This document shows positions 3,035-32,931 of a stretch of 64,000 bases of DNA, in pieces. The notes below the pieces were generated by a model that made no database searches, had not been told where the DNA came from, and saw only the letters and a list, made by a program, of their open reading frames with translations. Position 1 is the stretch's first letter. Every line of letters begins with the position of its first letter. The stretch lies in the IMG/VR virus record IMGVR_UViG_3300002061_000003; one strand, written 5' to 3'. This DNA is from a virus. Both the position numbers and the translations under genes were made by a program.

Positions 3035-3240
3035 GCGATCTAAGAAATTGTCGTGATTGTAAATTCTGCAATATGTCTCCACATCATATTGAAATGTTCT
3101 GTGTCTGGGAAAAGCATTCAATGCCAGCTCCTGTTTATAGAGCACGTCTTTGGGGTGCAAGTCCTCCGAAAGTTAATCCAGGTAATTACGCTGAAACCTG
3201 CACATTCTTTGAAAAGAAGGAAGAAACCGATGAAGGTTAG
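3031..3240 (+). CDS. Small Cys-rich hypothetical protein
   Basis: CRDCKFC...C...C pattern; ATGA overlap. Confidence 0.6.
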   Translation: MSDLRNCRDCKFCNMSPHHIEMFCVWEKHSMPAPVYRARLWGASPPKVNPGNYAETCTFFEKKEETDEG

Positions 3241-3721
3241 TGTCAGTTTTACAGACGATCAATTGAAGGCTTTGTTGTGGGAGTCAAACCTGATTGAAGG
3301 TATTGATAAGCCCATTACCGAGAAGCAAATTGAAGCATCCAGGTATATTATCGAGACTCAACAGGTTGGCGTAGCTGATTTGTCAAATTGGGTTCTGCTT
3401 TTTCAACCTGATGGATTGCTTCGTGACCAATACAAAATGAATGTTCGTGTAGGTGTTCACATACCTCCAGGAGGTGGGCCTCATATTACAAGTAGGTTGG
3501 AATCTTTGATGATCCAAATGCGTCGTGGTAGGGCATCAGCATATAAATGTCATATCGATTACCTTAACCTTCATCCATTTATGGACGGAAATGGCCGCTC
3601 CGGCCGGATCCTATTACTCTGGCAAGCTTGGCATCATGAGCCTAAGCTGTTTATGGATGCACTCCAGAATGGTTTACTCCATACCTGGTACATGGAAACA
3701 ATGAGACAAAATTCGAGGTAG
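3230..3721 (+). CDS. Fic-domain protein (AMPylase family)
   Basis: Canonical HPFMDGNGRSGR motif; N-terminal SNLIEG matches the (S/T)xxxE(G/N) inhibitory helix. Confidence 0.9.
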   Translation: MKVSVSFTDDQLKALLWESNLIEGIDKPITEKQIEASRYIIETQQVGVADLSNWVLLFQPDGLLRDQYKMNVRVGVHIPPGGGPHITSRLESLMIQMRRGRASAYKCHIDYLNLHPFMDGNGRSGRILLLWQAWHHEPKLFMDALQNGLLHTWYMETMRQNSR

Positions 3722-3723
3722 AT

Positions 3724-4446
3724 ATGTCTGCTAGTAGAAGAATAAAGACGTTGTTGCAGGCTTTAAGCAAGCCTAATCATGTGCTTGTATCATCGGTACA
3801 TGCAACAAAGTGCGTCATCGCAGATACTTCAGGTATTGCAGCTGAACAATGTTCCAAAGACGAACGTGAAGCTATGATGGCGGCTGGATACATAAGGCTT
3901 TTCAAAGAGCCTAAACCTGATATGATCCAGCATATCATAACCGAAAAAGGTCGTAAAACTGCTTTGAAGCCTCGACATGTTAGAGGTGAAAGAAGGTTCT
4001 CAGGTTCAACGTCTAGATCTCCCTTCGAACTGTTGGTTGAGAATAGTCGTATGAAGCAATATTTTACCGCTGATCAAATACAAGCTGGTAACATGTTCAA
4101 AGAGGACTTTATGCGTGCTCAAAATGATGATGGCTATCCGACAACAATGAACTGGAATACTGTAGGTGCATTCGTCGACACAGGCTTTAAAGGCACTCAA
4201 GGTGTTGTACCTAGTGGTTGGTATAAGCAGGAATGTGCATCACGTCTAGAGCAAGCGATCCAGTACTTAGGTGTTGGACTATCAGATGTGGTCTTACTTC
4301 ATATATGCTACGAGCGTGGCCTTGAAGAGACAGAGCAAACGCTTGGATGGTCAGCACGATCAGCAAAAGTTGTGCTACGCATAGCCCTACAACACCTTAC
4401 CCGCTTTTATGGCAAAGATGCCACAAGCCCTATGATCGGAGAATAA
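3724..4446 (+). CDS. GafA/GafZ-like (DUF6456) transcription activator/antiterminator
   Basis: 'SPFELL...AGNMFKEDF..AQ...T.NW' and C-terminal 'RLEQAIQYLGVGLSDVV...GLEETEQTLGWSARSAKVVLRIALQHLTRFY' match the GafA C-terminal DUF6456 pattern as I recall it. Confidence 0.75.
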   Translation: MSASRRIKTLLQALSKPNHVLVSSVHATKCVIADTSGIAAEQCSKDEREAMMAAGYIRLFKEPKPDMIQHIITEKGRKTALKPRHVRGERRFSGSTSRSPFELLVENSRMKQYFTADQIQAGNMFKEDFMRAQNDDGYPTTMNWNTVGAFVDTGFKGTQGVVPSGWYKQECASRLEQAIQYLGVGLSDVVLLHICYERGLEETEQTLGWSARSAKVVLRIALQHLTRFYGKDATSPMIGE

Positions 4447-5543: not shown

Positions 5544-5816
5544 ATGTCATCTCCTGTAAGCGCACTTGATGTGCGTGAACGTATTCTGCATGTCTTTAGT
5601 ATATACCCAAAGATCTCGCCGTCTATGCTCCAAATCAGTTTGAACTTACCCGCCAAAGATTGGCGTCCAGTTCTTGAAGAACTCATCACCGAAGATCAAG
5701 TTACACGTCAGTCACTTGTACATCTTACACCTACAGGCCGAAACCAATCCTATACAATCCTGACGTCCAACATTCTGACCGCAGAAGTGGAAACCGTTAA
5801 TGACGTTTCTAAGTGA
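5544..5816 (+). CDS. Small winged-helix-like DNA-binding protein
   Basis: 'ISPSMLQISLNLPAKDWRPVLEELITEDQVTRQ' has wHTH-like spacing; directly upstream of the primase. Confidence 0.5.
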   Translation: MSSPVSALDVRERILHVFSIYPKISPSMLQISLNLPAKDWRPVLEELITEDQVTRQSLVHLTPTGRNQSYTILTSNILTAEVETVNDVSK

Positions 5817-11432: not shown

Positions 11433-12089
11433 ATGCATGCTATACCTGACTATACTCCAATGACATCTTCTGAGTTGCTCGACATTCGTGCAGCTTGGCA
11501 TCCATCTACATCTCCGACATGGAAGCAGTTTACTTACCGAAAGGTTGATCTGTTTGATATGTATTGGGTAGATTGTGCTCATGTCATTCGAGATCAATCT
11601 TTCGATGGCAGGTATTATGAGGATGTCCACATCCCAGCGGCACACGAAGACTTCGAACCGATTCTGTCTCCTATGCGTATGCTTGAATTGGGTATCTTCG
11701 GCAATTCGTATTTCGGCAGCATGAAAGAAGATACCATCTATCCTTTGGGTAGAGAACGTGCTTTGTTGATGCCTCAGAATCGGCCATTCGATACGTATGA
11801 GGCTTTCGATAAGCCAAATTGGAAGACAGCTTTGTTTAAGCGGAAAGCGTCTTCGACTCGTGAATGGTGGATGGAACGTGATCTTATTGCAGATTGTGAT
11901 CCTCTCGGTCAATTCGAATGGTATTGCTGGTATTGGCTTGGCCGTCGTATTCCAGCTGAAGACAACCATCAGGTAAAGCGTTGGTTGAATTTCCGTAAGC
12001 GTCAGTCTGCTATGCTTGAGTCGAATCGAGCCGTTGGTTTACAGCAGGCCCTTCTACATTGGTCTTGTGATGCATGGGTGCATCTCTAA
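11433..12089 (+). CDS. Conserved viral protein of unknown function
   Basis: 'PMRMLELGIFG..YF...DPLGQFEWYCWYWLGRR.P.ED..QVKRW' pattern I associate with many phages and large DNA viruses. Confidence 0.7.
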   Translation: MHAIPDYTPMTSSELLDIRAAWHPSTSPTWKQFTYRKVDLFDMYWVDCAHVIRDQSFDGRYYEDVHIPAAHEDFEPILSPMRMLELGIFGNSYFGSMKEDTIYPLGRERALLMPQNRPFDTYEAFDKPNWKTALFKRKASSTREWWMERDLIADCDPLGQFEWYCWYWLGRRIPAEDNHQVKRWLNFRKRQSAMLESNRAVGLQQALLHWSCDAWVHL

Positions 12090-12268
12090 TGGCTGGTAAA
12101 CAAACATTCTACGTGCATTACAACGGCCATAGCTGGTATGTGAAGACACGTGAATTCTTCGAGCAACAAGGTGGGTTTGAAGAAGAGTGGGGTAAGGCTT
12201 GGAGTCCAATCTTGGCCACCTCTATCGAGGATGCTCGTACCAAAGCTGAGGAGGCTGCTAATGCCTAG
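12089..12268 (+). CDS. Small conserved hypothetical protein
   Basis: TAATG coupling; 'YVKTREFFEQQGG...WG..W'. Confidence 0.65.
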   Translation: MAGKQTFYVHYNGHSWYVKTREFFEQQGGFEEEWGKAWSPILATSIEDARTKAEEAANA

Positions 12269-12665
12269 AATGTGGATGGTTCCAACCGAAGTTCTCTGCA
12301 GTCAGCATCTTGTTGGCGAGCATTATGAAACGCATATGATCTACGGAGGCTTAACCAAGAATCGTGGTAAAGGTGCTGGCCTTGTAAGATCATTGGCAAA
12401 TGCTGGAAAGGCCGAACTAGCACAGCTTCAAGAGCGTCATGATGCATTAGCTGATGAATTAATCTTCCGAGGTGGCAATCATAACTCTCCCCTTATCTTC
12501 GAATGGGAGATGTTCCAGGAAGCTCTTGAATTGCCTGACGTCAAAGTAGACGTAGAAGAATCGTTACGTGAACTCGAATCACGATGTCCTAAGTGTCGTG
12601 CAAACATAGCCAAATGGAGAGAAGCTGATGGCCAATACAGACCAAACAACTACGTCTACAAATGA
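12261..12665 (+). CDS. Pyrimidine-dimer DNA glycosylase / endonuclease V (DenV)-family protein
   Basis: N-terminal 'PRMWMVPTEVLCSQHLVGEHYETHM' and 'LQERHDALADELIFRGGNHNSP'. Confidence 0.65.
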   Translation: MPRMWMVPTEVLCSQHLVGEHYETHMIYGGLTKNRGKGAGLVRSLANAGKAELAQLQERHDALADELIFRGGNHNSPLIFEWEMFQEALELPDVKVDVEESLRELESRCPKCRANIAKWREADGQYRPNNYVYK

Positions 12666-14098: not shown

Positions 14099-14500
14099 AT
14101 GAGTAAGCCCCCAACTTTCAAAGGTATTATCGTCCGTGGAATGTATCATCGGGGTGAATGGGCAGTAGCTATTGCTAAGGCTCTTCGCTCCGGTGAGTAT
14201 ATGATGGTTGAAAGGGAGCCGACAAATCCCTATGATGGCAATGCAATCAAAGTATTGGCACGAGAAGATGTTTTCGACAAGTTTACCTTTATTGGGTATA
14301 TTGGTCGAGAGTATGCAGCCCGGATAGCTCCGTGGATGGATTCTGGATGGTTCTTTAATGTCTCGGTTGAGAGGTTGATGAATGGGTATCCGATTGTAAA
14401 ATTGGAGCCCATGTTTCCAGATGAAAAGAAAGAAGAAGTCGGTGTCGAAGCAGAGCTCGACATTGTGCATAAACCTGAAAAAGAATTGGAAGACGCATGA
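14099..14500 (+). CDS. HIRAN-domain protein
   Basis: 'VRGMYHRG...VEREPTNPYDGNAIKV...IGYIGREYAARIAPWMD'. Confidence 0.85.
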   Translation: MSKPPTFKGIIVRGMYHRGEWAVAIAKALRSGEYMMVEREPTNPYDGNAIKVLAREDVFDKFTFIGYIGREYAARIAPWMDSGWFFNVSVERLMNGYPIVKLEPMFPDEKKEEVGVEAELDIVHKPEKELEDA

Positions 14501-14988
14501 ATCAAGTATTTGGCCCTAAACTCGGTTGGGATGATATTGAAGCACTGACAGACAATCTGGCTGATCAATGTTTGAACTCAGGTATTCAACCTGATATGAT
14601 TGTCGCTATTGCACGTGGTGGATTGATTCCAGCCACACAGTTAGCCCATAAGCTTGATGTAAGGCGTGTACGTAGCTTTCAGATGGTGTCGTATATCGAC
14701 GGCGTTCAGGGAGCTTTGGAACACATTGATTCGTCCCAAAACCTTATCGAAGAGATGGAACGCCCAAATGTGAATTGCGTTCTCTTTGTTGAAGACATCG
14801 TTGACACAGGTGCATCACTTCAATACTTGCGTAAGATGTTCACACTACCCCAGGGCTACAAGTGTGTGTCTGTATTCGCTTCCCTTACAGTCAAAAAGAA
14901 AGCACCGAAGGCTGATTGGCCTACGATGTATGCACATGTGTATCCCGAGGATGCATGGGTGACATTTCCGTGGGAGATGCCGAAGTAA
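14497..14988 (+). CDS. Type I purine phosphoribosyltransferase (Gpt/Xpt-like)
   Basis: IVAIARGGLIPA and the PRPP-binding VLFVEDIVDTGASL motif; C-terminal WVTFPWE. Confidence 0.85.
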   Translation: MNQVFGPKLGWDDIEALTDNLADQCLNSGIQPDMIVAIARGGLIPATQLAHKLDVRRVRSFQMVSYIDGVQGALEHIDSSQNLIEEMERPNVNCVLFVEDIVDTGASLQYLRKMFTLPQGYKCVSVFASLTVKKKAPKADWPTMYAHVYPEDAWVTFPWEMPK

Positions 14989-15149
14989 TTGACTACGCGA
15001 ATATACTGCGATTTAAAGCGCTAGTCAAGCGTTTGCTTCGTATAGCTATAGAAACGAGAAAGGTTCTACTTTAAACACGCGTATATTGAATGTTTGCTAG
15101 AACCTTTTGCTTGAAAGAAAACGCTAAATGCAATCACCGGAGAATCACG

Positions 15150-16067
15150 ATGCCCGTTAAACCTATGCTAGCTGGAAAATATGATCCAGCCAAGGTGGCA
15201 CAACAGCTTCCTATCTTAGCGCAACCCAAACTCGATGGTATTCGTATGCTTATCGACAATGGTGTTGGCTATAGCCGATCGCTCAAACGAATACCGAATG
15301 TGTTTGTCCAAAAGCGTATACAAGAGATCGCGCCCTTGATACAAGGTCTTGATGGCGAACTTGTTCTCGGCTCACCTACAGCTCCCGATGCTTACAGGCT
15401 CACCAACTCAGCAGTCATGTCTCATGGCGGTGTTCCCGATGTTACATTCCATGTCTTTGATTCCTGGGAAAACGATGCTGAATACCAATACAAGTTCCAT
15501 TGGCTCAAGACAAACATCGAAGGTTTGCTTCGTGCGAATGAGGCTGCGCATTGGTTGAGGCTTCTTCCGGTGACTCTGTGTAATACTATGGAAGACATCA
15601 CAGCATATGAAGCAGCGCTACTTGCGGAAGGTCATGAGGGTGTTATCCTTCGTGGTATGAGCAGCAAGTACAAGAATGGCCGTGCAACACCTTCTCAAGG
15701 CCAGCTGATCAAGATCAAACGGTTTAAAGATGCTGAAGCTGTTGTGCATGGATTCCAAGAGCTGCTCCACAACGGTAATGAAGCAACTACTAGCGAGACG
15801 GGTCATACAGTTCGTAGCGCGCATCAAGATAACAAAGTTCCCATGAATACGTTGGGTGCTTTGCTATGCACAGGCAAATGGGATGATGGAACACCCTTTG
15901 ATGTGAAGATCGGGACTGGTTTCGATGAAGATACCCGACAAGAAATCTGGGATAACCAAGACAGCTATTTCGGCCGATTGGTCAAATTCAAATACTTCGA
16001 GGTTGGCGTTAAAGATGCTCCCAGGCATCCAGTCTTTCTAGGCTTTCGTTCTCCCGAAGACACATAA
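15150..16067 (+). CDS. lig: ATP-dependent DNA ligase
   Basis: KPMLA, QPKLDGIR (adenylation Lys), LDGEL, EGVILR, KIKRF, VKIGTGF, PRHPVF; GGAGA RBS before 15150. Confidence 0.95.
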   Translation: MPVKPMLAGKYDPAKVAQQLPILAQPKLDGIRMLIDNGVGYSRSLKRIPNVFVQKRIQEIAPLIQGLDGELVLGSPTAPDAYRLTNSAVMSHGGVPDVTFHVFDSWENDAEYQYKFHWLKTNIEGLLRANEAAHWLRLLPVTLCNTMEDITAYEAALLAEGHEGVILRGMSSKYKNGRATPSQGQLIKIKRFKDAEAVVHGFQELLHNGNEATTSETGHTVRSAHQDNKVPMNTLGALLCTGKWDDGTPFDVKIGTGFDEDTRQEIWDNQDSYFGRLVKFKYFEVGVKDAPRHPVFLGFRSPEDT

Positions 16068-21204: not shown

Positions 21205-21405
21205 ATGAAAACGTTGACCCTCAGTCAGTTTGCCGCTTTGCATAACAAGTCAAAGCCAACCATTTCCAAGTATCTGAACAATGGGCAGATTTTAGGAATA
21301 CGAGTTGGACACGCTTGGCAAATCACGATCGAAGAGAGTGATAGGTATATGGCTGAGGGTCTTCTTCCTCTTCCTTCCGAAAACATCCAGCCCGGAGATT
21401 CTTAA
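21205..21405 (+). CDS. Excisionase-like helix-turn-helix protein
   Basis: 'LTLSQFAALHNKSKPTISKYLNNGQILGIRVGHAWQI'. Confidence 0.75.
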   Translation: MKTLTLSQFAALHNKSKPTISKYLNNGQILGIRVGHAWQITIEESDRYMAEGLLPLPSENIQPGDS

Positions 21406-21406
21406 G

Positions 21407-22168
21407 ATGACAAAAGCATTTGTCTTGCTTAGTGGTGGCATTGACAGCACAACCTGCCTTTTCGACGCACTCAAAAATTACGACGAGGTGGAAGCCGTCT
21501 CGATCAACTACGGCCAAAAACATTTCAAAGAAACCGAATTTGCCAACGCTACATGTAAAGCACAAGGTGTTGAGCATCGGATTCTGGACATTCGCGGATT
21601 GCTGGATGGCAATGGCGTCATGCTTACAGATGCCGAAACATCCATCCCATCTATCGACTACTCAGACATTGAGGGTGTTTCACCTACATATGTTCCATTC
21701 CGTAATGGTACGTTGTTGTCGATCATTGCAGCTCAAGCTCAGAAATGGGTGATGGCAGAAATCGATCGCCGCAAAGACGATATGAATGCTCATGACTATG
21801 CTGGCAAACATTTCACGGATCAAGAGCTTCTGGATATGATGCGCGATTCATCGGCGGTCTATTTGGGTGCTCATGCTGAGGACGCACATAATTGGGCTTA
21901 TCCTGATTGTACTCCAGAATTCAACGGTGCTATGGCGAATGCTATCTACACTGGCACCTACTACACAGTCCGCCTTCGCACGCCTCTGCTGAACATGACA
22001 AAGCAGGAAGTTATTGAATATGGCTATTCAATGGGTGTTGATTGGAAAAGCACGTGGAGCTGTTACGCTGGTGGTGAAAAGCATTGTGGCGAATGCCCTA
22101 CATGCCGTGCTCGCAAGCAAGCATTTATTGCTGCAGAGATTCCTGATCCAACTGAATACGCAGTTTAG
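21407..22168 (+). CDS. queC: 7-cyano-7-deazaguanine (preQ0) synthase
   Basis: LLSGGIDS, YGQKH, TYVPFRN, YPDCTPEF, TWSCY, HCGECPTC. Confidence 0.97.
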   Translation: MTKAFVLLSGGIDSTTCLFDALKNYDEVEAVSINYGQKHFKETEFANATCKAQGVEHRILDIRGLLDGNGVMLTDAETSIPSIDYSDIEGVSPTYVPFRNGTLLSIIAAQAQKWVMAEIDRRKDDMNAHDYAGKHFTDQELLDMMRDSSAVYLGAHAEDAHNWAYPDCTPEFNGAMANAIYTGTYYTVRLRTPLLNMTKQEVIEYGYSMGVDWKSTWSCYAGGEKHCGECPTCRARKQAFIAAEIPDPTEYAV

Positions 22169-22230: not shown

Positions 22231-22704
22231 ATGACCAAACCACGTTTTATCTCAACCAAAACCTATACACATTCTATAGGACTTTCTGCTGCATTTCGTC
22301 AGTGGCGCGCTGAATCTCATTGTAGGTTTATTCACGGGTACTCACTTGAAGTGCATGTCAAGTTTATCGAAAAAGCGGGACTTGATATTCGCAACTGGGT
22401 TGTCGATTTTGGCAGCCTTAAATCGTTCAAAGGCATGCTTGAAGATACCTTCGATCACAAAACACTTGTCGCTGAAGATGATCCATACCTTCAGAAGTTC
22501 ATGGATATGCAGTCTATGGGTTTGATGCAGGTTGTTAAAGTTCCCAACTGCGGTTGTGAAGCTTTCGCAGGTATGCTCTTTGAGTATGCTCAGATATGGC
22601 TCAAAGATAACGGTTATGGTTCCGTGGATGTCTTTGAGGTCGAAGTTCGGGAGCATGCAGCGAATTCAGCTATCGCCCGAAATCCAGCTTACCTCCATGC
22701 GTAA
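22231..22704 (+). CDS. queD: 6-carboxy-5,6,7,8-tetrahydropterin synthase
   Basis: 'HCRFIHGYS', 'VVDFGSLK', 'FDHKTL', 'EVEVREH'. Confidence 0.95.
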   Translation: MTKPRFISTKTYTHSIGLSAAFRQWRAESHCRFIHGYSLEVHVKFIEKAGLDIRNWVVDFGSLKSFKGMLEDTFDHKTLVAEDDPYLQKFMDMQSMGLMQVVKVPNCGCEAFAGMLFEYAQIWLKDNGYGSVDVFEVEVREHAANSAIARNPAYLHA

Positions 22705-22978
22705 GCTCATACCTACAGGTTATACTCATGTCAAAATGGGTGGACCTCCGACTGACTGGGCTGAGCTGATGATCCTGAATACGGATACACAAACGCTCGT
22801 ATACCAGGTAATAGAAGTCAACACTGAAGAGGGTTGGCTTGAGAGGCACGTTGATACTGTTCCCGACGGATCTCTTGATGAATGGCCTTCTGAACGATTA
22901 GAAGGTAATTTTCAAATTGTGCGAGCAGCTGAAATAGAAAGTACGTCACATGTCAGAAAAGAAGATTCCGCTGGTTGA
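22697..22978 (+). CDS. Hypothetical protein inside the que cluster
   Basis: ATG 22697 overlapping the queD stop; 93 aa. Confidence 0.6.
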   Translation: MRKLIPTGYTHVKMGGPPTDWAELMILNTDTQTLVYQVIEVNTEEGWLERHVDTVPDGSLDEWPSERLEGNFQIVRAAEIESTSHVRKEDSAG

Positions 22979-23756
22979 ATCTTTCGGCCCCACCATTCAA
23001 GGTGAAGGGGCTGTTATTGGTTATCAGACCATATTCTTACGTTTTGGTGGTTGTGATTACCGTTGCGGTAAATGCGATTCACTCCATGCTGTGCTTCCAA
23101 GCATGTTCAAGAACGCACCGAAGATGACAAATGCTGAGTTGCTTGAGCATACTCTTGAACTTGCTGGCCACTGTCATTGGATCACATTCTCAGGTGGCAA
23201 TCCCTGTATGTGGGATCTTACGGATCTTGTTGCAGGTCTGAAGCTTGCAGGTAAGATGATTGCCGTTGAGACTCAAGGCACTCTGCTTCCTGATTGGCTG
23301 GCTATGTGTGATATGGTTACCGTATCACCTAAAGGGCCTGGTATGGATGAAGTCTTTGAGCCTGAGAAGTTCGATGCTTTCGTCAAGAAGTTTCATCCAG
23401 TACTTGAACCCAAAGATCCGAGAATGCCAATGGCTCGCGGTGAAGACTGGCACTTTGGGTTCTCCGTTAAAGTCGTGGTATTTGACCAACGCGATTTGGA
23501 GTTCATGGTTGAGATCATGGAACGTTGGCCAACTACAGCTCAGGTGATGTTTGCCTCTATAGGTAACGTGGATCCTCCTGCCCCTGCAAAACGTCTGCAT
23601 GAAGGTGATGAACTGCCTCACATGGAGTTCGTTGAACAAACCCTGAACAACTATGAACTACTGGCACGTGAGATCTGGGAAGATCCTCGCTGCTCACCTG
23701 TTCGTGTTCTACCTCAACTTCACACCCTTCTCTGGGGTAACAAACAAGGCGTCTGA
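22950..23756 (+). CDS. queE: 7-carboxy-7-deazaguanine synthase (radical SAM)
   Basis: TIQGEG, FLRFGGCDYRCGKCDS (CxxxCxxC), TFSGGNP, ETQGT, VSPK, LPQLH. Confidence 0.95.
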   Translation: MSEKKIPLVESFGPTIQGEGAVIGYQTIFLRFGGCDYRCGKCDSLHAVLPSMFKNAPKMTNAELLEHTLELAGHCHWITFSGGNPCMWDLTDLVAGLKLAGKMIAVETQGTLLPDWLAMCDMVTVSPKGPGMDEVFEPEKFDAFVKKFHPVLEPKDPRMPMARGEDWHFGFSVKVVVFDQRDLEFMVEIMERWPTTAQVMFASIGNVDPPAPAKRLHEGDELPHMEFVEQTLNNYELLAREIWEDPRCSPVRVLPQLHTLLWGNKQGV

Positions 23757-23757
23757 T

Positions 23758-24381
23758 ATGACTGACCAAAGACCTAAAGCTCCGACATTACCTTTCAATA
23801 CCATCATGTCATCGGATGATATGGTTGGTGCTATTGAAGGTGTGGAGCAAGCACTTGATTTTGCAATTCCGAAATGGAACGAAAACCCATCTACAGAAAA
23901 CACTGCCACACGCTTTATGAAGTATCTGGCAGAGTTTACGCAGCCAATCGATATGGACAAGATCTTTGGGTCTACGTTCGAAGATCCAGCTGATCACCCT
24001 CCCATGATCATCCAACATCCAATCCCGTTCCGAATGGTTTGCGAACATCATCTGTTACCCGCTGTAGGGGTGGCTGCCTTGGGATACGTGCCACACAAGA
24101 GAGTCTTAGGGCTTTCCAAGTTGACACGCCTGGTAGATGCTGTAGGCGTTGAACAGCCTTCGCTGCAAGAACATCGTGCTAACCGTATCATGGATTTGAT
24201 GAATCAGCATCTTGAACCTAAAGGTGTTATGCTGGTTATCAAGTCTCAACACGGTTGTATGGCTTGTCGCGGTGTTAACGTGAGGGGCGTTGATACCACT
24301 ACTTCTCATGTGTCAGGTGTATTCCGTGACAACCCAACAGCTCGTGCTGAGTTCTTGGCTTTGATCCAAGGTAACATGTAA
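23758..24381 (+). CDS. folE: GTP cyclohydrolase I
   Basis: TATRF, VCEHHLLP, GLSKLTRLV, LQE, HGCMACRGV, TTTS, RAEFL. Confidence 0.97.
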   Translation: MTDQRPKAPTLPFNTIMSSDDMVGAIEGVEQALDFAIPKWNENPSTENTATRFMKYLAEFTQPIDMDKIFGSTFEDPADHPPMIIQHPIPFRMVCEHHLLPAVGVAALGYVPHKRVLGLSKLTRLVDAVGVEQPSLQEHRANRIMDLMNQHLEPKGVMLVIKSQHGCMACRGVNVRGVDTTTSHVSGVFRDNPTARAEFLALIQGNM

Positions 24382-24572
24382 TGGCTACGATTACGCTTAC
24401 CGAAGAACAGCACGGCGAAGCAGTGAATTACCTCGAACAAGCACGTGAAGCACTGGAGAATGCCGAAACATTGCTTGCTAACCGCACTATTGATACCGAC
24501 GAACTGATTCAAGACCTTCAGGAAGTTGCTCAGCAGTGCTCTAATTGCCACAAAGTGGTAGGAGAAGTTTAA
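24381..24572 (+). CDS. Small helical hypothetical protein
   Basis: TAATG coupling on both sides; CSNC near the C-terminus. Confidence 0.6.
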   Translation: MATITLTEEQHGEAVNYLEQAREALENAETLLANRTIDTDELIQDLQEVAQQCSNCHKVVGEV

Positions 24573-25318
24573 TGGCTAAATTTGCACCTGTGGTTCCGAT
24601 CCCAGTCGCACAAGCATATCGTGAAGCTGGCATGCTGGGTGATTACCAGTTGTTGCTGGCTCATGATGTTATCAAGCGTCCAGGTGATTATGCTCAAACG
24701 TATTCACACAACCAGTGGATTATCATGGACAACTCTGTCATCGAATTGGGTTATCCCCTTTCAGAAGACGAGATGCGTGAAGCTATTGGTGTTGTGCATG
24801 CATCAGTTTTTGTCTTGCCCGATGAATTGTTGGACAAAGATCAAACAATCCTGAAGACGTTCGAGGCTTTGAATACTTGGGGGAACTTGATCACCGATTC
24901 AACCAAAGGTATGGCTGTTCCTCAAGGCACTACATTTGACGAATGGGTTGAATGTGTAGAAGCCTTCGCACAGATCCGTGAAATTGATTGGATTGGTATT
25001 CCACGCAATGTCAAAGAAAAGCTGGGTACTTCTCGTGTGAAGGCCGCAGAGATCGTTCAAACCGTATGTCCCGATAAGAAAATTCACATGCTTGGATTCA
25101 GCGATGACATTCAGGATGATGTTGCAGCAACTCGCGTCGGTGGCGCTGTTATGGGTATCGACTCCGCTGTGCCGTCTCGGATGGGAATGCGTGACCAGAA
25201 AGTTATCACCCTAGCCAATCCTGATCATTCACCTCGGGGTGATTGGTGGGATAACCCAGGCGAAGTTAATGATCTGGCAATTACCAATGTAACGGTTTTC
25301 CGTTCTTGGTTGACATAA
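24572..25318 (+). CDS. dpdA: TGT-fold transglycosylase, DpdA-like (inserts 7-deazaguanine into DNA)
   Basis: TIM-barrel strands with TGT-equivalent residues: IIMDNS, VLPDE, AVPQG, IGIP, IHMLG, GIDSAVP; directly downstream of folE. Confidence 0.75.
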   Translation: MAKFAPVVPIPVAQAYREAGMLGDYQLLLAHDVIKRPGDYAQTYSHNQWIIMDNSVIELGYPLSEDEMREAIGVVHASVFVLPDELLDKDQTILKTFEALNTWGNLITDSTKGMAVPQGTTFDEWVECVEAFAQIREIDWIGIPRNVKEKLGTSRVKAAEIVQTVCPDKKIHMLGFSDDIQDDVAATRVGGAVMGIDSAVPSRMGMRDQKVITLANPDHSPRGDWWDNPGEVNDLAITNVTVFRSWLT

Positions 25319-25467: not shown

Positions 25468-27918
25468 ATGACTCCGATGGAAATACAAGCACTAGCCCCA
25501 GGTAAGAAAATTGCTCAAGGCGGTTACGGTAATCCCAAAGCTTCAATCGTATTCGTGGGCGAATCTCCAACAGCTGCAGAATTAGTCAAAAATGAAGCCA
25601 GTAAAGCTGTGCTAAAAGTTCTCGGAGATGTCTTTCCAGACTCATTCGATGCCGAGAACTTTTACTACATCAATGCGGTTCCATATCTCGTACCTAAAAC
25701 CAAAGACACTAAACGTAATACCGAGCTGACTGAAAAAGCTGCAATGGCTTGCCATAAATATATTACCGACGAACTTGCAAAGCATCCCCGAAAGATTATT
25801 GTATGCTTAGGTAATACAGCTATGTGGGCAGTGAATAATGACATCACTACACGCATTACACGTATTCGTGGACAAGTATTTGATTCACCCTTAGCCGAGC
25901 ATGGTATCTTAGCATCTGTACACCCATCCTTCTTACTTCGTGGTGGTGGTTCATATACTAAGTTCAAAAGAGACATCAACTATGCACTGGATATTGCACG
26001 AGGTGTACCCCGCAAAGTATGGGATCAACCCAACTATGAAGTCTCACGGGATGAACAAGACGTAAAGGCATTCATTGATGTCACGTTCCTAGCGGCGGAA
26101 AGACTGAATGATTTCGATCTTGGGGCGGATATTGAAACGGGTGGCTTTGATCACATGGATGATGAAGTTCTTTGTCTTGGTTGGTGTGTTGATCCCGGCA
26201 TGGTATATATTGCTCAGGAAGAGCATTTAGAAGCCCTCCATCATCGTGACTTCATGGTTCCGCGTTTACTTGGCGGTGTTTTTAATTGGGTCTGGCATAA
26301 CGGTAAGTTTGACGTTAAGTTCATGCGTACTCAAGGACATCTAAAGTCTGGTGTGGATCATGATACTATGCTCATGTCATACACAATGGAAGAGCGTGGC
26401 GGATTTCATGATCTTGACCAAGTAGCCTCTGATGAGCTTGGCGCACCCTATCACAAGGATATGCTTGAGGAATATCTACCAAGCAAGAAGTCATCTTATA
26501 GGGTTATTCCTAAACCTGTTTTACATGAGTATGCTGCATATGACGTATCGAAAACGAAAGGTATGCATACTCAGATGCTTAAACGCATCGAAGCCGATTC
26601 CAAAAACAAAAAACTATACCACCGAGTATTACTTCCAGCATCTGAACTCTTGTCAGAAGTGGAAGAGAATGGTATGCTTGTCGATATGGATAAGCGGGCT
26701 GAGAATGTAACCTACTTTGAAAACATCATGGCTGAGCACGCCGAAGCTTTGAATGCCATTGCTCTTGAGATCAACCCTGGTGCATTCTATAAGACTTCAG
26801 GTCCTAAGAGAGATGGTGGTGGACGTATCATTAAGGGCATCAATCCTAACAGCCCTAAACAGATCGGGGACCTGCTTTACAATCAACTCCGTCTAGCCAA
26901 AACCAATAAAGGTACTGGAGCCGATGTTCTTGAAAAATTGCCAGCACACCCCGCAGTTACCGCACTTCAGAAGCACCGCAAAGCCGCTAAAGCTTTCGGC
27001 ACTTATGTTAAGCCCTTGCCAGATCAAGTCTCTTCCGATGGACGAGTGCATTCAACTTATCTTATCCATGGTACTGCAACAGGCCGTCTCTCATCTCGCG
27101 GACCAAATATGCAAAACCAACCTCGCGATCCACGGATCAGAGGACAGTTTATTGCCGCAGAAGGCCATATGCTCTGCGAGATGGATTTGGATCAGGCTGA
27201 ATTGCGGTGTCTCGCAGCTCTGTCTGGAGATGAAGCCCTTTGCCATATCTATGAAACCGCAGGTCTATCTCTCCACAAAGTCGTTTCCAAAGAGATTTGG
27301 GGAGATGATTGGGTAGAGAGATATGCTCTAGACCTTCCAGGCAATGCGGATTATGATCAGGCCAAAGAAGAATACATGAGAACGAAGGCTTTGAACTTCG
27401 GTATTGTGTATGGCCGTGAAGCAAATTCCATTGCACAAGAATTTGAAATACCTACCGAAGAAGCTCAGCGTATGATTGATGGCTGGGCTAATCAATTTCC
27501 AACAGCCTGGAAGTTTATCGGTAAATGCCGTAATGCTCCTATCAAAGGGCAAAACCTGACAACTCCGTTCGGCCGTCGAAAGCGTGCTGGGGTCATCAGT
27601 CGTGAGAAGATTCGGGATCTTCAAAATGAAGCTTCCAACTTTCCTCACCAGTCGATTGCATCAGACATCACTTTGATGTCAGCAGTTAAAGTTCGTCCAT
27701 GGTTGAAAGAGCGTGGAATTAAGATCGTTAACCTTGTGCATGACGCTATCATTGTTGAATATCCGGATGATCATGATCTGTTCATTGAGATGGCCAACCA
27801 TGTAACTACCGAAATGGAAAAGACTCCGATAGAATGGGGCATTGATCGGATACCGTTCTCTGCTGATGCTAAAACAGGAAAACGTTGGGGCGATCTGAAA
27901 GACACGCCATTCAAATAA
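25468..27918 (+). CDS. polA: Family A DNA polymerase with N-terminal UDG-like domain and 3'-5' exonuclease
   Basis: UDG fold (VFVGESP, NAV, LGNTA, HPSFLLR); Exo I/II/III (DIET, HNGKFD, YAAYD); TGRLSS, DLDQAELR, KALNFGIVYG, VHD. Confidence 0.95.
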   Translation: MTPMEIQALAPGKKIAQGGYGNPKASIVFVGESPTAAELVKNEASKAVLKVLGDVFPDSFDAENFYYINAVPYLVPKTKDTKRNTELTEKAAMACHKYITDELAKHPRKIIVCLGNTAMWAVNNDITTRITRIRGQVFDSPLAEHGILASVHPSFLLRGGGSYTKFKRDINYALDIARGVPRKVWDQPNYEVSRDEQDVKAFIDVTFLAAERLNDFDLGADIETGGFDHMDDEVLCLGWCVDPGMVYIAQEEHLEALHHRDFMVPRLLGGVFNWVWHNGKFDVKFMRTQGHLKSGVDHDTMLMSYTMEERGGFHDLDQVASDELGAPYHKDMLEEYLPSKKSSYRVIPKPVLHEYAAYDVSKTKGMHTQMLKRIEADSKNKKLYHRVLLPASELLSEVEENGMLVDMDKRAENVTYFENIMAEHAEALNAIALEINPGAFYKTSGPKRDGGGRIIKGINPNSPKQIGDLLYNQLRLAKTNKGTGADVLEKLPAHPAVTALQKHRKAAKAFGTYVKPLPDQVSSDGRVHSTYLIHGTATGRLSSRGPNMQNQPRDPRIRGQFIAAEGHMLCEMDLDQAELRCLAALSGDEALCHIYETAGLSLHKVVSKEIWGDDWVERYALDLPGNADYDQAKEEYMRTKALNFGIVYGREANSIAQEFEIPTEEAQRMIDGWANQFPTAWKFIGKCRNAPIKGQNLTTPFGRRKRAGVISREKIRDLQNEASNFPHQSIASDITLMSAVKVRPWLKERGIKIVNLVHDAIIVEYPDDHDLFIEMANHVTTEMEKTPIEWGIDRIPFSADAKTGKRWGDLKDTPFK

Positions 27919-28277: not shown

Positions 28278-28510
28278 TGTCCGATCCAAAATCATTCACT
28301 GAAAAGCATATGGATAAGCTAACCCAGCCTATCTATGGCACACCCACTGGTAGGCTTTCAACAAGCCAACCTGAAATGCAAGAACTTCCAGGTCCTCGTG
28401 GAATTAACGAAAGCTTTATGGAAGAACCTCTATCACTCGCCGAAATCGATTATGCTCAGGCAGAGCTTCGAATCATGGCATTCCTCTCAGGAGAAGATAT
28501 CAATGACTGA
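28277..28510 (+). CDS. Mini-protein made of the PolA palm motifs (fragment of a family A polymerase)
   Basis: GTPTGRLSTSQPEMQELP...EIDYAQAELRIMAFLSGED; GAGGT RBS; TAATG and ATGACTGA couplings. Confidence 0.7.
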   Translation: MSDPKSFTEKHMDKLTQPIYGTPTGRLSTSQPEMQELPGPRGINESFMEEPLSLAEIDYAQAELRIMAFLSGEDIND

Positions 28511-30815
28511 CCAATTGGTTGCAGACATCCACCCATCACTTGACGAATTCACTATGCCGTTGATTCGTGATGTCTGGGCAAAGAAATACAAGTGGGGCGA
28601 TGAACAGTCCATGTTCGATACTATCAACCGTGTTGTTGATGGTGTTTATGCTAAAGATGGAAGCGGTGAAGCACAGCAACAAATGCGTTACTTTATGTTG
28701 GCAGGTCTTTGGATGCCCGCAGGTCGTATTCTCGCTGGTGCAGGTACTTCGAAAAAAGTAACGTTGATGAATTGCTACGTCAATGGTACAGTGCCTGATT
28801 CAATGGAGGGAATTCATACCGCTATCGGGAATGTGATGTTTACACTTCAGCAAGGTGGTGGTATTGGGACAGACTTCTCAACGCTCCGTCCAGCGGGAGC
28901 CGCATTGAAGCGTACTGGTAAAGGTTCTGCAGCTTCTGGACCAATTCCATTTATGACGCAATGGGATGCAACTTCGAAGACTGTAAAGTCAGCAGGTGAT
29001 CGTCGTGGTGCTATGATGGCTACTATGTCAGATTGGCATCCTGATCTACCCGCATTCATCCAATGCAAACGTGAACGTGGGGTGATGGAGCAATTCAACA
29101 TTTCCGTTTTGGTTTCTGATGCCTTTATGGAAGCCGTAGAAGCCGATGCGATGTGGAGTCTCCACTTTCCTGCTGAGCCCGCTGAAGAGCGTGCATCTGA
29201 ATTAGTGGAACAAGATTTTGAAAAAGATGGCGTTACCTATTACGTCTATTCCGTTTGGAAGGCTCGTGACCTTTGGAATATGATCATGGAGAACACTTAT
29301 GATTATGCTGAGCCTGGTGTCATTTTCATTGACCGTGTTAACGACCTTAACAATCTACAGTATTGTGAGACTATCCGTTGTACTAACCCATGTGGAGAAC
29401 AACCGCTCCCACCTCATGGCGCTTGCGATCTTGGCGCTGTCAATCTATCCCGTCTGGTCGATGATCCTTTCACGTCTAACGCCGATGTTAATTGGGATAT
29501 GTTATCGAGGGTTGTCGCAGCTGGAGTGCGTTTCCTGGATAATGTCATCGACGTAACCCAATACCCGCTTGAAGAGCAAGCACAAGAACAATACGATAAG
29601 CGTCGTGTAGGTTTGGGTATTAGCGGTTTGGCTGATGCGTTGGCTCAAATGAAATTGGTATATGGCAGCAATGAAGCAGTTGCTATGACAGACAAGATCA
29701 TGAAAGCCATTGCCGAAGCTGCTTATGAAGCATCAGCTATGTTGGCTCAAGAACGTGGAGCTTTTCCTCTCTTCGATGCCGACAAAATCAATCGCCATTT
29801 CCTGGAGCAGCTTGATCCTCGAATTACGGATATGGTGAATGATCTGGGTCTACGTAATGGTGTTCTCCTAACCATTGCACCTACTGGCACCACTTCTTTG
29901 GTGTATGGGAACATTTCATCGGGGCTGGAGCCTAACTTCGCACATAGCTATAACCGGAAAGTGTTCTCATCCAACAACGAACATCAGGCTGAGACTTACG
30001 AGGAGGTTAAGACATATTTGTATAGCCTGCATCAGCGTCACGGTGATGGCTATAAAAACCCTGAAAAGCTTTTGGATCTGGACTACATGATCACAGCTCA
30101 AGAGTTGCCGGTTGATGCTCATCTACGTATGCAAGGTGCATGTCAGAAATGGGTTGATGCTTCTATTTCCAAAACCATTAACTTGCCTGAAGACATCACC
30201 TTTGGAGATTTTCAGGCCGTATATCTTCGGGCTTACGCTCTAGGGTGTAAAGGATGTACGACTTATCGCCCTTCCGATGTTCGAGGTTCTGTGCTTTCAC
30301 TTGCCTCAGACAAACCTGAAGAAGTCAAAGAAGGCCGCCCAGAAGCTTTGCCTGGCCTTACGTATAAGATCAAATGGCCTTCTTGGAATGCTTCCATCTT
30401 CTTAACCATCAACCATTACACTGACAACACACCTTGGGAAATTTTTATCCAGTCCAAAGATGCTCGTCATCAAGAATGGGTGACAGCTTTGACGGTGATG
30501 ATCTCAGCGTTGATGCGTTCTGGGATGGATGTCCAATTCATTGTCAAAGAATTGCAGGCTATCAAATCGACACATGATGGTGCTTTCTTGGAAGGTAAGT
30601 ATTATGGTTCGTTGCTTGCCCGTATCGGTGAAGTATTGGAACGTCATTTTCAATCTGAAGGTGTTATTGCAGTTGAGCCTTCAACCGAACCTGTAGAGGT
30701 AAATACTAAGGTTGAGATTCGGGGAGATGTTTGCCCTGAGTGTGAAGCCCCTTCAATGGTAATGGCAGAAGGTTGCATGAAATGCACTAACTGCGGTTAC
30801 TCCAAATGCGGTTAG
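28503..30815 (+). CDS. nrdJ: Class II (B12-dependent) ribonucleotide reductase
   Basis: PAGRIL, LMNCYV, GGGIGTDFS, TNPCGEQPL, CDLGAVNL, IAPTGTTS, GCKGCTTYR; C-terminal CPEC..CTNCGYSKC ribbon. Confidence 0.95.
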   Translation: MTDQLVADIHPSLDEFTMPLIRDVWAKKYKWGDEQSMFDTINRVVDGVYAKDGSGEAQQQMRYFMLAGLWMPAGRILAGAGTSKKVTLMNCYVNGTVPDSMEGIHTAIGNVMFTLQQGGGIGTDFSTLRPAGAALKRTGKGSAASGPIPFMTQWDATSKTVKSAGDRRGAMMATMSDWHPDLPAFIQCKRERGVMEQFNISVLVSDAFMEAVEADAMWSLHFPAEPAEERASELVEQDFEKDGVTYYVYSVWKARDLWNMIMENTYDYAEPGVIFIDRVNDLNNLQYCETIRCTNPCGEQPLPPHGACDLGAVNLSRLVDDPFTSNADVNWDMLSRVVAAGVRFLDNVIDVTQYPLEEQAQEQYDKRRVGLGISGLADALAQMKLVYGSNEAVAMTDKIMKAIAEAAYEASAMLAQERGAFPLFDADKINRHFLEQLDPRITDMVNDLGLRNGVLLTIAPTGTTSLVYGNISSGLEPNFAHSYNRKVFSSNNEHQAETYEEVKTYLYSLHQRHGDGYKNPEKLLDLDYMITAQELPVDAHLRMQGACQKWVDASISKTINLPEDITFGDFQAVYLRAYALGCKGCTTYRPSDVRGSVLSLASDKPEEVKEGRPEALPGLTYKIKWPSWNASIFLTINHYTDNTPWEIFIQSKDARHQEWVTALTVMISALMRSGMDVQFIVKELQAIKSTHDGAFLEGKYYGSLLARIGEVLERHFQSEGVIAVEPSTEPVEVNTKVEIRGDVCPECEAPSMVMAEGCMKCTNCGYSKCG

Positions 30816-30823
30816 GATAGACT

Positions 30824-31402
30824 ATGCAACTTTGCGATTGGGAAATAAGCCAGTTATGCGATTCTTCTAACGTAGCTGACGGTTCACGCTGGAGACCTAT
30901 GTTGGATCCTTTCGTGATGGAGAAATCTCGGATGGGATCTCTTTCTTACGGTCTTGGCCATTTCGGCTATGATATCAGGTTGGGTGATGCACTTGTAATA
31001 CCTGAGCGTGTTATGAGGCCGATAGATCCAGCAACTGAAACAGATCTCAGCACGTTACCCTATACTAACTTTGACTTGGAAACTCGGGCAGCAGTTCTCG
31101 AGCCAGGTCAAATGGTGATGGGTGGTACTTTGGAATACTTTTGCATTCCAGCTAATATCGTTGCTGTGGTTCACGATAAGAGTACGTTAGCCCGTTTAGG
31201 GCTAGCAGTTCAAAACACGGTTCTCGAACCTGGATGGAATGGTTTCCTCACAATGGAAATTACCAATCATGGGGTGAATGACATTGTCTTGAGTTCTGGA
31301 ATGCCTATTGCTCAAGTAATCTTTTACCAAGGTGAATTCCCTGATAGTGTATATGAGGGTAAGTACCAGAATCAACGTAAAGGGGAGGTTGCTCGATCAT
31401 GA
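30824..31402 (+). CDS. dcd: dCTP deaminase
   Basis: SYGLGHFGYDIRL, DKSTLARLG, LEPGWNGFLTMEI, IAQVIF, YEGKYQNQ. Confidence 0.92.
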   Translation: MQLCDWEISQLCDSSNVADGSRWRPMLDPFVMEKSRMGSLSYGLGHFGYDIRLGDALVIPERVMRPIDPATETDLSTLPYTNFDLETRAAVLEPGQMVMGGTLEYFCIPANIVAVVHDKSTLARLGLAVQNTVLEPGWNGFLTMEITNHGVNDIVLSSGMPIAQVIFYQGEFPDSVYEGKYQNQRKGEVARS

Positions 31403-31965
31403 GTAAACTAGGTATGAAGTTGATGATTGTGGGCTATGCGCGTCACGGTAAAGATACTGTGGCAGATTTGCTTACAGAGCATTATGACATGCATTTTGTT
31501 TCGTCATCCTATTTTATGGCTGAACGTGTTGTACTGCCTAAGATGCAAAAAGCTTGGCAACGATATCGTTCGGCTAGCCCTATCAAGGTTGAAAAACCTC
31601 CATTCCCTGAATATGCGGATCTTGACGAAGCCTATGCTGATCGTGTAAATCACCGGCAATTCTGGTTTGAGGCTATCAAAGAAGCCAACGAAGACGATCC
31701 GGCTTTTCTGTCTACAGCCATCTTTGCGGAATTTGATCTGTATGTAGGGAATCGTAACCCTCGTGAATTTCATGCAGCCAAATGTATGGGTCTTTTCGAC
31801 TTTTCAATCTGGGTGGATGCTTCTGAGCGTATGCCTCCCGAGGGTGAAGAGTCTAATGGCATTCAACCTTGGATGACAGATTATATTCTGGACAACAACG
31901 GTACTCCAGAACATCTGGAACGCAACCTACATCGTCTGATGGCTACCTTAGCCAAGAAGCGATAA
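31399..31965 (+). CDS. Deoxynucleoside monophosphate kinase
   Basis: P-loop IVGYARHGKDTVA; GNRNPREF; WVDASER; located among nucleotide-metabolism genes. Confidence 0.75.
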   Translation: MSKLGMKLMIVGYARHGKDTVADLLTEHYDMHFVSSSYFMAERVVLPKMQKAWQRYRSASPIKVEKPPFPEYADLDEAYADRVNHRQFWFEAIKEANEDDPAFLSTAIFAEFDLYVGNRNPREFHAAKCMGLFDFSIWVDASERMPPEGEESNGIQPWMTDYILDNNGTPEHLERNLHRLMATLAKKR

Positions 31966-32034
31966 CCCATGCATTGGTATCTACCTTACGCATACTACCT
32001 ATATCAACTATACAAAGAAGAAGGAAACAAAGAA

Positions 32035-32931
32035 ATGGATGACACCACTTCAGCGGGAGAAGAGATGGTTCAGCTCGAGCGTCCCAAGTGCGCCGCTATG
32101 GATGATCTGATGGCTCAAGGTACGATCCCTGTACTCGATAAGGGTATGATCCGCGTCGTCGATTATATGGGTGATGATGCTGCTGTCGCTCAAGCCGCCC
32201 GGACATCATATGGAACTGGAACGAAGACCGTCAATGAAGATCGTGGGCTGATTCGTTATCTGATGTCACACTGGCATACCACACCTTTTGAAATGTGCGA
32301 AATCAAGCTGCATGTGAAACTGCCAGTCTTCGTCGCCCGTCAGTGGGTGCGTCATCGGACCGCGAACATCAATGAGTATTCGGCTCGTTACTCGGTGCTG
32401 GATCGTGAATTTTACTTCCCTGAGCCTGAGCAGATTGCAGCACAATCACAATCGAATGCTCAAGGGCGTGAAGAGGTTTTTGATCGTGCTCAGGCACTCG
32501 ATGTTCGGCAGTGGATTATGGATCATTCCGAATTGTCGTACAACCTCTACAGCAATCAGCTTGACGATGGGTTAGCTCGGGAATTAGCTCGGATGAATCT
32601 GCCTCTCAATATCTATACCCAGTGGTACTGGAAAGTAGATGTCCACAACTTTATGCACTTCTTGCGACTCAGAGCTGATCCCCATGCGCAATACGAAATT
32701 CGTGTGTATGCCGAAGCTCTTTGCGAGATCTTGAAAGTTTGGATGCCTGTCACATACGAAGCATTCGAAGACTACCGCCTCAATGCGCTTCAACTGTCTA
32801 GCATGGAATATGATCTGGTGCAGCAGATGATTGACAATGCAGGTAAGGTCGATCCGGCATCTGAATCTTGGACAAAGCTTTCTAAGCGCGAGAAGAAGGC
32901 TTTTGAGGATAGGTTTCAGCCTATCGTATAA
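32035..32931 (+). CDS. thyX: Flavin-dependent thymidylate synthase
   Basis: [42 protein letters not shown]. Confidence 0.97.

Follow-up and report, generated by a model that had tools for sequence, protein, structure and literature searches.

A phage purine phosphoribosyltransferase of the xanthine-guanine type is a candidate guanine salvage enzyme in 7-deazaguanine DNA modification

What a purine phosphoribosyltransferase (PRTase) contributes to a phage that is predicted to exchange guanine in its DNA for 7-deazaguanine bases is the question raised by the gene at positions 14497..14988 (+ strand) of IMG/VR virus record IMGVR_UViG_3300002061_000003. The stretch that was analysed, termed the window, comprises 64,000 nucleotides and is nearly the whole of a phage genome, as contigs that carry the PRTase reach up to 64,203 nt. 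A preliminary description of the locus, which was based on the letters alone, noted intact type I PRTase motifs and put forward two roles. In the first, the enzyme recycles guanine excised during base exchange by DpdA while FolE drains GTP. In the second, it converts preQ0 (7-cyano-7-deazaguanine) to its nucleotide and thereby feeds a pre-replicative route through NrdJ, a deoxynucleoside monophosphate (dNMP) kinase and an unusual PolA. The analysis presented here identifies the product as a type I PRTase whose viral relatives are associated with deazaguanine genes, and gives a somewhat better than even chance to the interpretation that it is an active 6-oxopurine PRTase that would form the salvage arm of the 7-deazaguanine DNA-modification pathway by converting guanine to GMP.

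The coordinates of the PRTase open reading frame (ORF) coincided exactly with those of the preliminary description. The ATG start codon overlaps the TGA stop codon of an upstream HIRAN-domain ORF within an ATGA sequence, on which basis the two genes probably are co-translated, and a promoter and terminator scan around the PRTase gene revealed nothing over background. The product matched the Pfam profile PF00156 (Pribosyltran) with an E-value of 1.8e-14 and 53.8 bits, which passed the cut-off of 26.3 bits, and also matched phrog_8995 ('phosphoribosyl transferase') in PHROGs with an E-value of 2e-18. Among curated (NCBIfam) models the best match was xanthine phosphoribosyltransferase (NF006613; 71 bits). 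The nearest solved structures by sequence were GpT-1 and GpT-2 of Sulfolobus solfataricus and XGPRT of Escherichia coli (PDB 4trb, 4z1o, and 1a97; E-values of 1e-11 to 1e-8). The pyrophosphate loop is intact (R40-G41-G42), the flexible catalytic loop includes a Ser-Tyr dyad (S65-Y66), and the phosphoribosyl pyrophosphate (PRPP) loop reads V98-E-D-I-V-D-T-G105, within which D100, D103 and G105 are conserved family-wide. Residue K133 and the C-terminal block W154-V-T-F-P-W-E160 also are kept. By analogy with XGPRT and HGPRT structures, K133 would contact O6 of the purine, W154 would stack on the purine, and D103 would contact N7. These canonical residues match those of cellular guanine/xanthine-type PRTases and therefore support a salvage role. 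The close family is small, consisting of five metagenomic homologs with 38–51% identity, but these homologs indicate that the gene is conserved and is not a chance ORF. A further homolog is from Actinomadura.

An AlphaFold2 model of the PRTase built on 11 family members had a predicted local distance difference test (pLDDT) score of 87.7. When the model was compared with solved structures using Foldseek, the best matches were XGPRT of Yersinia and E. coli, archaeal HGXPRT and Helicobacter pylori XGHPRT, with E-values of ~1e-12 and template modelling scores of 0.7–0.8. The top matches listed were all purine PRTases except 5vog, a hypothetical protein of Neisseria gonorrhoeae with bound ppGpp. 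The protein is a type I PRTase by profile, PRPP loop and core α/β fold, and its Ser-Tyr dyad, stacking aromatic residue, W-x-x-x-P-W-(D/E) motif and lysine place it by sequence in the XGPRT/HGXPRT clade. Thus, the type I motifs noted in the preliminary description were confirmed by PF00156, by the aligned motifs, and by the AlphaFold2 and Foldseek results.

The window encodes FolE, QueD, QueE and QueC at 6.3–9.4 kb downstream of the PRTase gene (Table 1). Between FolE and PolA, an ORF that opens at position 24545 (257 aa to 25318) specifies a protein that did not match the profiles for tRNA-guanine transglycosylase (TGT; PF01702) or DpdA (PF23859), and that was not detected against the PDB either by phmmer or by its family profile. 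In the ESM Atlas the protein neighbours a PF23859 DpdA cluster and archaeal TGTs. Its AlphaFold2 model had a pLDDT score of 95.7, and the top 50 PDB matches in Foldseek all were tRNA-guanine transglycosylases with a probability of 1.0. A BLASTP comparison with DpdA of Flavobacterium phage immuto_2-6A, which is a DpdA3 in Hutinet/Cui et al. 2023 (PMC10516641), gave an E-value of 6e-9. The family profile matched the same DpdA with an E-value of 1e-18 and a 'hypothetical protein' of Brevundimonas phage MaInes with an E-value of 5e-69. The family comprises >486 proteins, none of which is annotated or has a precomputed Pfam domain, and is characterised by the invariant motifs MDNS, VPQG, HLLGF, and GIDSAVPxR. 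Thus, the product of 24545–25318 is a candidate DpdA-type transglycosylase that was found by Atlas, fold and published-DpdA3 comparison only, and not through Pfam. With FolE, QueD, QueE and QueC alongside this TGT-fold relative of a published DpdA3, the window is predicted to specify a DpdA3-type system. The deazaguanine-modification context proposed in the preliminary description therefore was recovered, as were the further genes named there: a class II-like ribonucleotide reductase (RNR) for NrdJ, a phrog_139 match for the dNMP kinase, and a PolA fused to a uracil-DNA glycosylase (UDG) domain.

The association between the PRTase family and deazaguanine genes was assessed across viral loci. 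A profile scan of IMG/VR detected PRTase relatives with 25–34% identity on at least 315 viral contigs, and 81 loci were analysed by calling deazaguanine genes within 10 kb using iterated local profiles. At least one gene for FolE, QueD, QueE, QueC or a DpdA3-like protein was present at 55 of the 81 loci: QueE at 46, FolE at 24, QueD at 21, DpdA3-like at 13, and QueC at 4–6. The genes mostly were on the same strand as the PRTase, with FolE or QueE often directly adjoining. A spot check of ten QueE calls against NCBIfam found nine to be QueE-like; the call at locus L076 was dropped as this check identified another radical S-adenosylmethionine (SAM) protein. Flanks of the 80 closest cellular relatives, which are from Alphaproteobacteria, Dehalococcoidia, Actinomyces and several archaea, were used as a control. 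No FolE, QueD or DpdA3-like gene was present in the 1.31 Mb of these flanks, and almost none of the 80 loci had any gene of the FolE, QueD, QueE, QueC and DpdA3 set. Among isolated phages the base rate of FolE is 390 in 50,697 records (0.8%). Neighbourhood association at ~70% of loci, against a FolE base rate of <1%, would be difficult to account for unless the genes were linked by a pathway. Co-occurrence with que genes across phages, which the preliminary description had suggested as a check, thus was borne out. When PF01702, PF23859 and the DpdA3-like family profile were applied to five large PRTase-bearing contigs (17–76% complete), a single distant DpdA3-like match was observed.

Isolated phages provided a second view of this association. 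In immuto_2-6A the gene order is QueD, QueE, PRTase (gp211), FolE, hydrolase, DpdA, formyltransferase, thymidylate kinase, QueF and PolA. Brevundimonas phage MaInes possesses a module like that of the window in which the PRTase and FolE genes adjoin, and in Cellulophaga phage phiST the PRTase gene adjoins a dNMP-kinase-like gene and RNR. The Campylobacter phage CP220 homolog of 137 aa was missed by the generic Pfam model and was detected by the family profile with an E-value of 2.6e-17. Complete guanine replacement has been described in three phage groups, represented by immuto, phiST and CP220 (PMC10516641), and stand-alone members of the PRTase family are present in all three (immuto_2-6A, phiST, and CP220). 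As guanine release is maximal where replacement is complete, this distribution supports a salvage role. In CP220 (L100:9870-11912, corresponding to 163869-165911 of the phage), the PRTase homolog CPT_0182 is two genes upstream of the radical SAM protein CPT_0184, which at 389 aa is longer than the usual QueE.

The PRTase domain also occurs fused to FolE. A loop-less version of ~115 aa forms the N-terminus of the 'GTP cyclohydrolase I' in ~30 isolated phage records, among them VpKK5, PaMx25, NP1, JG012 and phages of Stenotrophomonas, Xanthomonas, Sphingomonas, and Variovorax. The fused mini-PRTase retains RGG, DDIIDSG, K and WVVFPWE motifs, and in the two regions that were inspected the fusion gene immediately precedes a classical DpdA gene. 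In two examples (L085:5754-6647 and L086:6998-7900), the mini-PRTase is followed by FolE and Pfam sees the FolE domain alone. Modification in the studied phages with classical DpdA clusters is partial and motif-specific, and hence post-replicative (PMC10484667).

A maximum likelihood (ML) tree of 164 sequences grouped the window PRTase with its four close relatives, with support (SH-like approximate likelihood ratio test, SH-aLRT, 95), and set this clade beside cellular enzymes from Dehalococcoidia. The MaInes PRTase was located inside a cellular clade, whereas the phiST and CP220 PRTases were in a large phage-only clade. At R40, G41, G42, Y66, D100, D103, K133, W154, and P158-W159, the window clade agrees with 74 cellular relatives, having in each case the residue that predominates or never varies among them; the loop tyrosine Y66 is invariant both in these relatives and in the window clade. 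At position 99, the first of the acidic pair, the window protein has Glu (as in four of the five clade members) compared to Asp in all 74 cellular relatives. In the phage-only clade the loop tyrosine is replaced by Arg in 33 of 50 sequences, K133 by Asn in 28 of 50, and V102 by Asn in 31 of 50. The residue type of the PRTase tracks the type of cluster. The 'RN' type was observed at 33 loci (including L009, L013 at L013:6359-6832, L018, L026, L038, L055, and L069) beside QueE, FolE and QueD; within 10 kb, DpdA3-like genes were absent and QueC was all but absent. Three RN-type contigs of 60–109 kb, which are incomplete, had no TGT or DpdA match. The canonical 'YK' type, to which the window PRTase belongs, occurred at 22 loci with a DpdA3-like gene at eight and QueC at three. 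Five contigs with canonical-type PRTases had no FolE, of which four are only 9–22% complete and the fifth has QueC. The RN clade is a candidate for altered, possibly 7-carboxy-7-deazaguanine (CDG)-type, specificity.

How guanine salvage might operate in the window phage can be outlined as follows. FolE, QueD, QueE and QueC would convert GTP to preQ0, and the DpdA3-like transglycosylase would swap guanine in DNA for the deazaguanine base, thereby freeing guanine. Using PRPP, the PRTase would convert this guanine, along with guanine from host nucleic-acid breakdown, to GMP which host kinases would raise to GTP to resupply FolE, such that the loop would be closed stoichiometrically. As FolE and the DpdA3-like protein both are encoded by the phage, both ends of the proposed loop are present. 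The PRTase also would clear free guanine, a competitor for re-insertion by the transglycosylase, and so would favour forward exchange. Within the TGT family, re-insertion of guanine is an established activity of tRNA TGTs, on which the standard guanine-exchange assay relies; by analogy, DpdA may re-insert guanine as well. The 64.2-kb genome at 45.8% GC contains ~29,000 guanines. Judged against the GTP pool of a cell, full exchange over a burst would be expected to release guanine on the order of that pool, and the flux through the PRTase therefore would be large if replacement is extensive. Host HPRT and XGPRT reportedly are inhibited by (p)ppGpp, which may be why the phage needs a PRTase of its own; the relative 5vog binds ppGpp.

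Several observations weigh against a role in guanine salvage linked to DNA modification. Support for this role is genomic in kind. The score of 71 bits with NF006613 is below the equivalog cut-off of 138 bits for xanthine phosphoribosyltransferase and, on this measure, the window PRTase is a relative of Gpt and not an equivalog. The adenine-specific enzyme 4trb of S. solfataricus is among the Foldseek matches and thus base specificity is not fixed by fold or by membership of the fold family. FolE does not act directly on GMP, and the PRTase-FolE fusion therefore does not join sequential steps. Moreover, most hosts already possess Gpt or Hpt. The ML tree suggests that host-type PRTases were recruited repeatedly by phages, which if real would favour retention of the ancestral activity, but repeated recruitment lacks statistical support, as a tree with one phage clade was not rejected in the approximately unbiased (AU) test (p 0.218). 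Finally, the window PRTase gene is outside the cluster, 6.3 kb upstream of the que genes amid repair and replication genes. Nevertheless, recycling of excised guanine is the better supported of the two roles in the preliminary description, in view of the canonical residues, the DpdA3-like gene, and the adjacency or fusion to FolE elsewhere.

The alternative that holds up best, although it is considered unlikely, is that the PRTase resembles TubE and ToyH. In this scheme, which includes the conversion of preQ0 to its nucleotide that was the second role in the preliminary description, preQ0, or CDG or 7-amido-7-deazaguanine (ADG), and PRPP would yield a deazaguanine ribonucleotide that kinases, the class II RNR and PolA would carry into DNA before or during replication. 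Several features of the complete-replacement phages are in accord with this scheme: the PRTase family is found in all three groups, and complete replacement is typical of nucleotide-pool routes. The RN phage-only clade is situated beside FolE, QueD and QueE without a nearby QueC or DpdA3-like gene, and the window itself encodes a PRTase with genes for CDG/preQ0 synthesis, although this arrangement is equally expected if guanine is salvaged. Nothing in the window protein points to such activity, however. The enzyme is outside the RN clade and its canonical residues are kept, including D103; the equivalent Asp of 6-oxopurine PRTases contacts N7, an atom that is absent from 7-deazapurines, which weighs against a TubE-like activity. 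The presence of a DpdA3-like gene in the phage means that a nucleotide route is not required, and no dGTPase or MazG-type enzyme that would exclude dGTP was matched among the scanned window ORFs. Phages with classical DpdA clusters carry this PRTase domain as a fusion to FolE, and related phages that have been studied modify specific motifs post-replicatively (PMC10484667). A precedent nevertheless exists in that TubE is a PF00156 enzyme whose use of CDG and PRPP was shown in vitro, with ToyH the presumed preQ0 equivalent (PMC6112128). In addition, no demonstration of DpdA3 activity is known, attempts in E. coli having been unsuccessful, and cells infected with CP220 contained an ADG nucleoside (PMC10516641). 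The NrdJ, dNMP kinase and PolA genes invoked in the preliminary description are ordinary phage replication genes that do not discriminate between the two roles. The wider proposition that some or all members of the phage PRTase family phosphoribosylate CDG, preQ0 or ADG, so that complete-replacement DNA is built at least partly from a deazaguanine nucleotide pool and not only through post-replicative DpdA exchange, is unlikely to the same extent. Judged by residues and gene context, the RN clade would be the better candidate for activity on a deazaguanine base, which is less likely for the canonical enzyme of the window.

Generic auxiliary purine salvage ranks next and also is improbable. Here the PRTase would produce GMP, XMP or IMP from host nucleic-acid breakdown for replication, with no specific tie to DNA modification. 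The location of the gene among those for HIRAN, ligase and SNF2 helicase proteins at a distance from the que genes would fit this role, as would the 26 of 81 viral loci that lack a deazaguanine gene within 10 kb and the existence of relatives in PA5oct-like jumbo phages and a Synechococcus phage. However, many of the loci without a que gene are short fragments, and generic salvage does not account readily for the neighbourhood association set against the FolE base rate, for the PRTase-FolE fusion, or for the adjacency of FolE in the related phage MaInes. PRTase folds have been reused as regulators, namely PyrR and PurR. Specificity for another base, for example adenine as with S. solfataricus GpT-1, or a function as a non-catalytic ligand sensor or regulator of PRTase fold is very improbable for the window protein: although its best PDB sequence match, 4trb, is labelled adenine PRTase in the Foldseek listing and its relative 5vog binds ppGpp, no catalytic motif is disrupted, the Ser-Tyr dyad of the loop included, the characterised relatives act for the most part on 6-oxopurines, and the genomic association is with a pathway that derives from guanine.

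Among known systems, the window PRTase has a fold in common with Gpt/XGPRT (E. coli 1A95-1A98, 1NUL; Yersinia 5XTK) and with HGXPRT/XGHPRT (4Z1O, 1VDM, and 7KL6), and shares the size of these enzymes (~150–180 aa), the RGG loop, the acidic PRPP loop with D-T-G, the Ser-Tyr dyad, the Lys after a β-strand, and W-x-x-x-P-W-(D/E). It differs in being phage-encoded, in showing only ~25% identity, and in belonging to a family that is tied to FolE, QueD, QueE and DpdA unlike the 80 cellular relatives. TubE (CDG:PRPP, tubercidin) and ToyH (toyocamycin) of Streptomyces are PF00156 proteins that, like the window PRTase, are encoded with FolE, QueD and QueE, with or without QueC (PMC6112128). The tubercidin and toyocamycin clusters include GMP-reductase, PurA/PurB-like, UbiD and Nudix tailoring genes and no DpdA, whereas the window phage shows the reverse; this comparison is one of gene content. 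Like the window, the DpdA3-type phages phiST, CP220 and immuto_2-6A (PMC10516641) possess FolE, QueD and QueE, a DpdA3-like gene beside a family A polymerase, and a PRTase. However, the immuto PRTase is loop-less and is encoded inside the cluster, whereas the window PRTase is full-length and canonical and lies outside the cluster; in addition, the window includes QueC. The mini-PRTase-FolE proteins of Queuovirinae-like phages (VpKK5, PaMx25, NP1, and Stenotrophomonas ytsc_ply2008005c) contain a homologous domain with the same signature motifs, but this domain is ~115 aa without a flexible loop and is accompanied by a classical TGT-type DpdA, whereas PRTase and FolE are separate in the window.

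In the literature searched, no paper assigns a role to the PRTase in phage deazaguanine clusters, and the term 'phosphoribosyl' has zero occurrences in the description of the DpdA3-type phages (PMC10516641). Thus, the PRTase family and the phage 7-deazaguanine system both are known, but the PRTase as a conserved accessory is absent from that literature. The current description of the pathway consists of base synthesis by FolE, QueD, QueE and QueC followed by post-replicative exchange by DpdA, with no nucleotide-salvage component. The recurrent PRTase, its fusion with FolE in dozens of isolated phages, and its presence in every complete-replacement group point to an unrecognised step. The window adds to this pattern a full-length, canonical, loop-bearing member that a relative of MaInes encodes apart from the cluster, as well as a residue type that tracks cluster type. 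If guanine is recycled as proposed, this would explain how a phage can afford to replace guanine stoichiometrically, at tens of thousands of positions per genome, and how exchange is driven to completion. If instead the PRTase acts on a deazaguanine base, the view that every such modification is made after replication would have to be revised. For annotation, a fused PRTase domain is hidden in genes named 'GTP cyclohydrolase I'.

The window is organised as an early and replication block on the + strand to ~33 kb and a structural block on the - strand at ~33–60 kb. No close DNA relative was found among isolated phages when 22 kb of the window was compared with INPHARED by megablast. The features of the early and replication block that bear on the PRTase are collected in Table 1.

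Table 1. Coordinates of the phosphoribosyltransferase gene and other features of the window
Feature	Coordinates	Strand	Basis
Type I purine PRTase, XGPRT/HGXPRT-like, loop-bearing full-length form (163 aa, ATG start)	14497..14988	+	PF00156 and fold
DpdA3-like DNA-guanine transglycosylase candidate, TGT fold (248 aa)	24572..25318	+	Fold and DpdA3 similarity
Stand-alone HIRAN-domain protein	14099..14500	+	PF08797 (E 2e-11)
ATP-dependent DNA ligase, downstream neighbour of PRTase	15090..16067	+	PF01068, PF14743
QueC, 7-cyano-7-deazaguanine synthase	21305..22168	+	PF06508 (E 1.2e-56)
QueD, 6-carboxytetrahydropterin (CPH4) synthase, PTPS family	22231..22704	+	PF01242 (E 2.2e-15)
QueE, 7-carboxy-7-deazaguanine synthase, radical SAM	22950..23756	+	TIGR03365 (E 5.6e-59, 199.6 bits), PF04055
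FolE, GTP cyclohydrolase I	23653..24381	+	PF01227 (E 1.9e-42)
Family A DNA polymerase (PolA), N-terminal UDG-superfamily domain and 3'-5' exonuclease	25468..27918	+	PF00476, PF03167, PF01612
Ribonucleotide reductase large chain with TSCPD domain	28335..30815	+	PF02867 (E 1.7e-125), PF12637
dCTP deaminase / dUTPase-like protein	30824..31402	+	PF22769 (E 3.4e-27)
dNMP-kinase-like protein	31399..31965	+	phrog_38514 (E 1.9e-54); phrog_139 dNMP kinase (E 2.9e-13)
ThyX, flavin-dependent thymidylate synthase	31969..32931	+	PF02511 (E 6.2e-56)

The FolE domain corresponds to residues 76–238 of its ORF, which overlaps QueE; the true FolE start may be downstream of this overlap. The window FolE carries no fused PRTase domain. 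The RNR is consistent with class II (NrdJ) as no beta subunit was seen in the scans. In PolA, the PF03167 uracil-DNA glycosylase-superfamily domain spans residues 19–171 and precedes the 3'-5' exonuclease domain. Approximately 2 kb upstream of the PRTase gene, positions 12150-12665 specify a DenV-like pyrimidine-dimer DNA glycosylase (PF03013) whose start probably is internal to the listed ORF. A 218-aa ORF at 11433-12089 matched nothing in Pfam or PHROGs, and none of the loci that were fetched contained a homolog. A protein of 799 aa (5800-8199) with a DUF3854 match and no further recognised domain probably is the primase/helicase of the replication module. The window also encodes an AAA_24 gene and a DUF669 gene. 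Finally, a Fic/DOC-domain protein (3053-3721) and, immediately after it, a DUF6456 protein (3724-4446) are encoded, and the two may constitute an effector pair of the early region.

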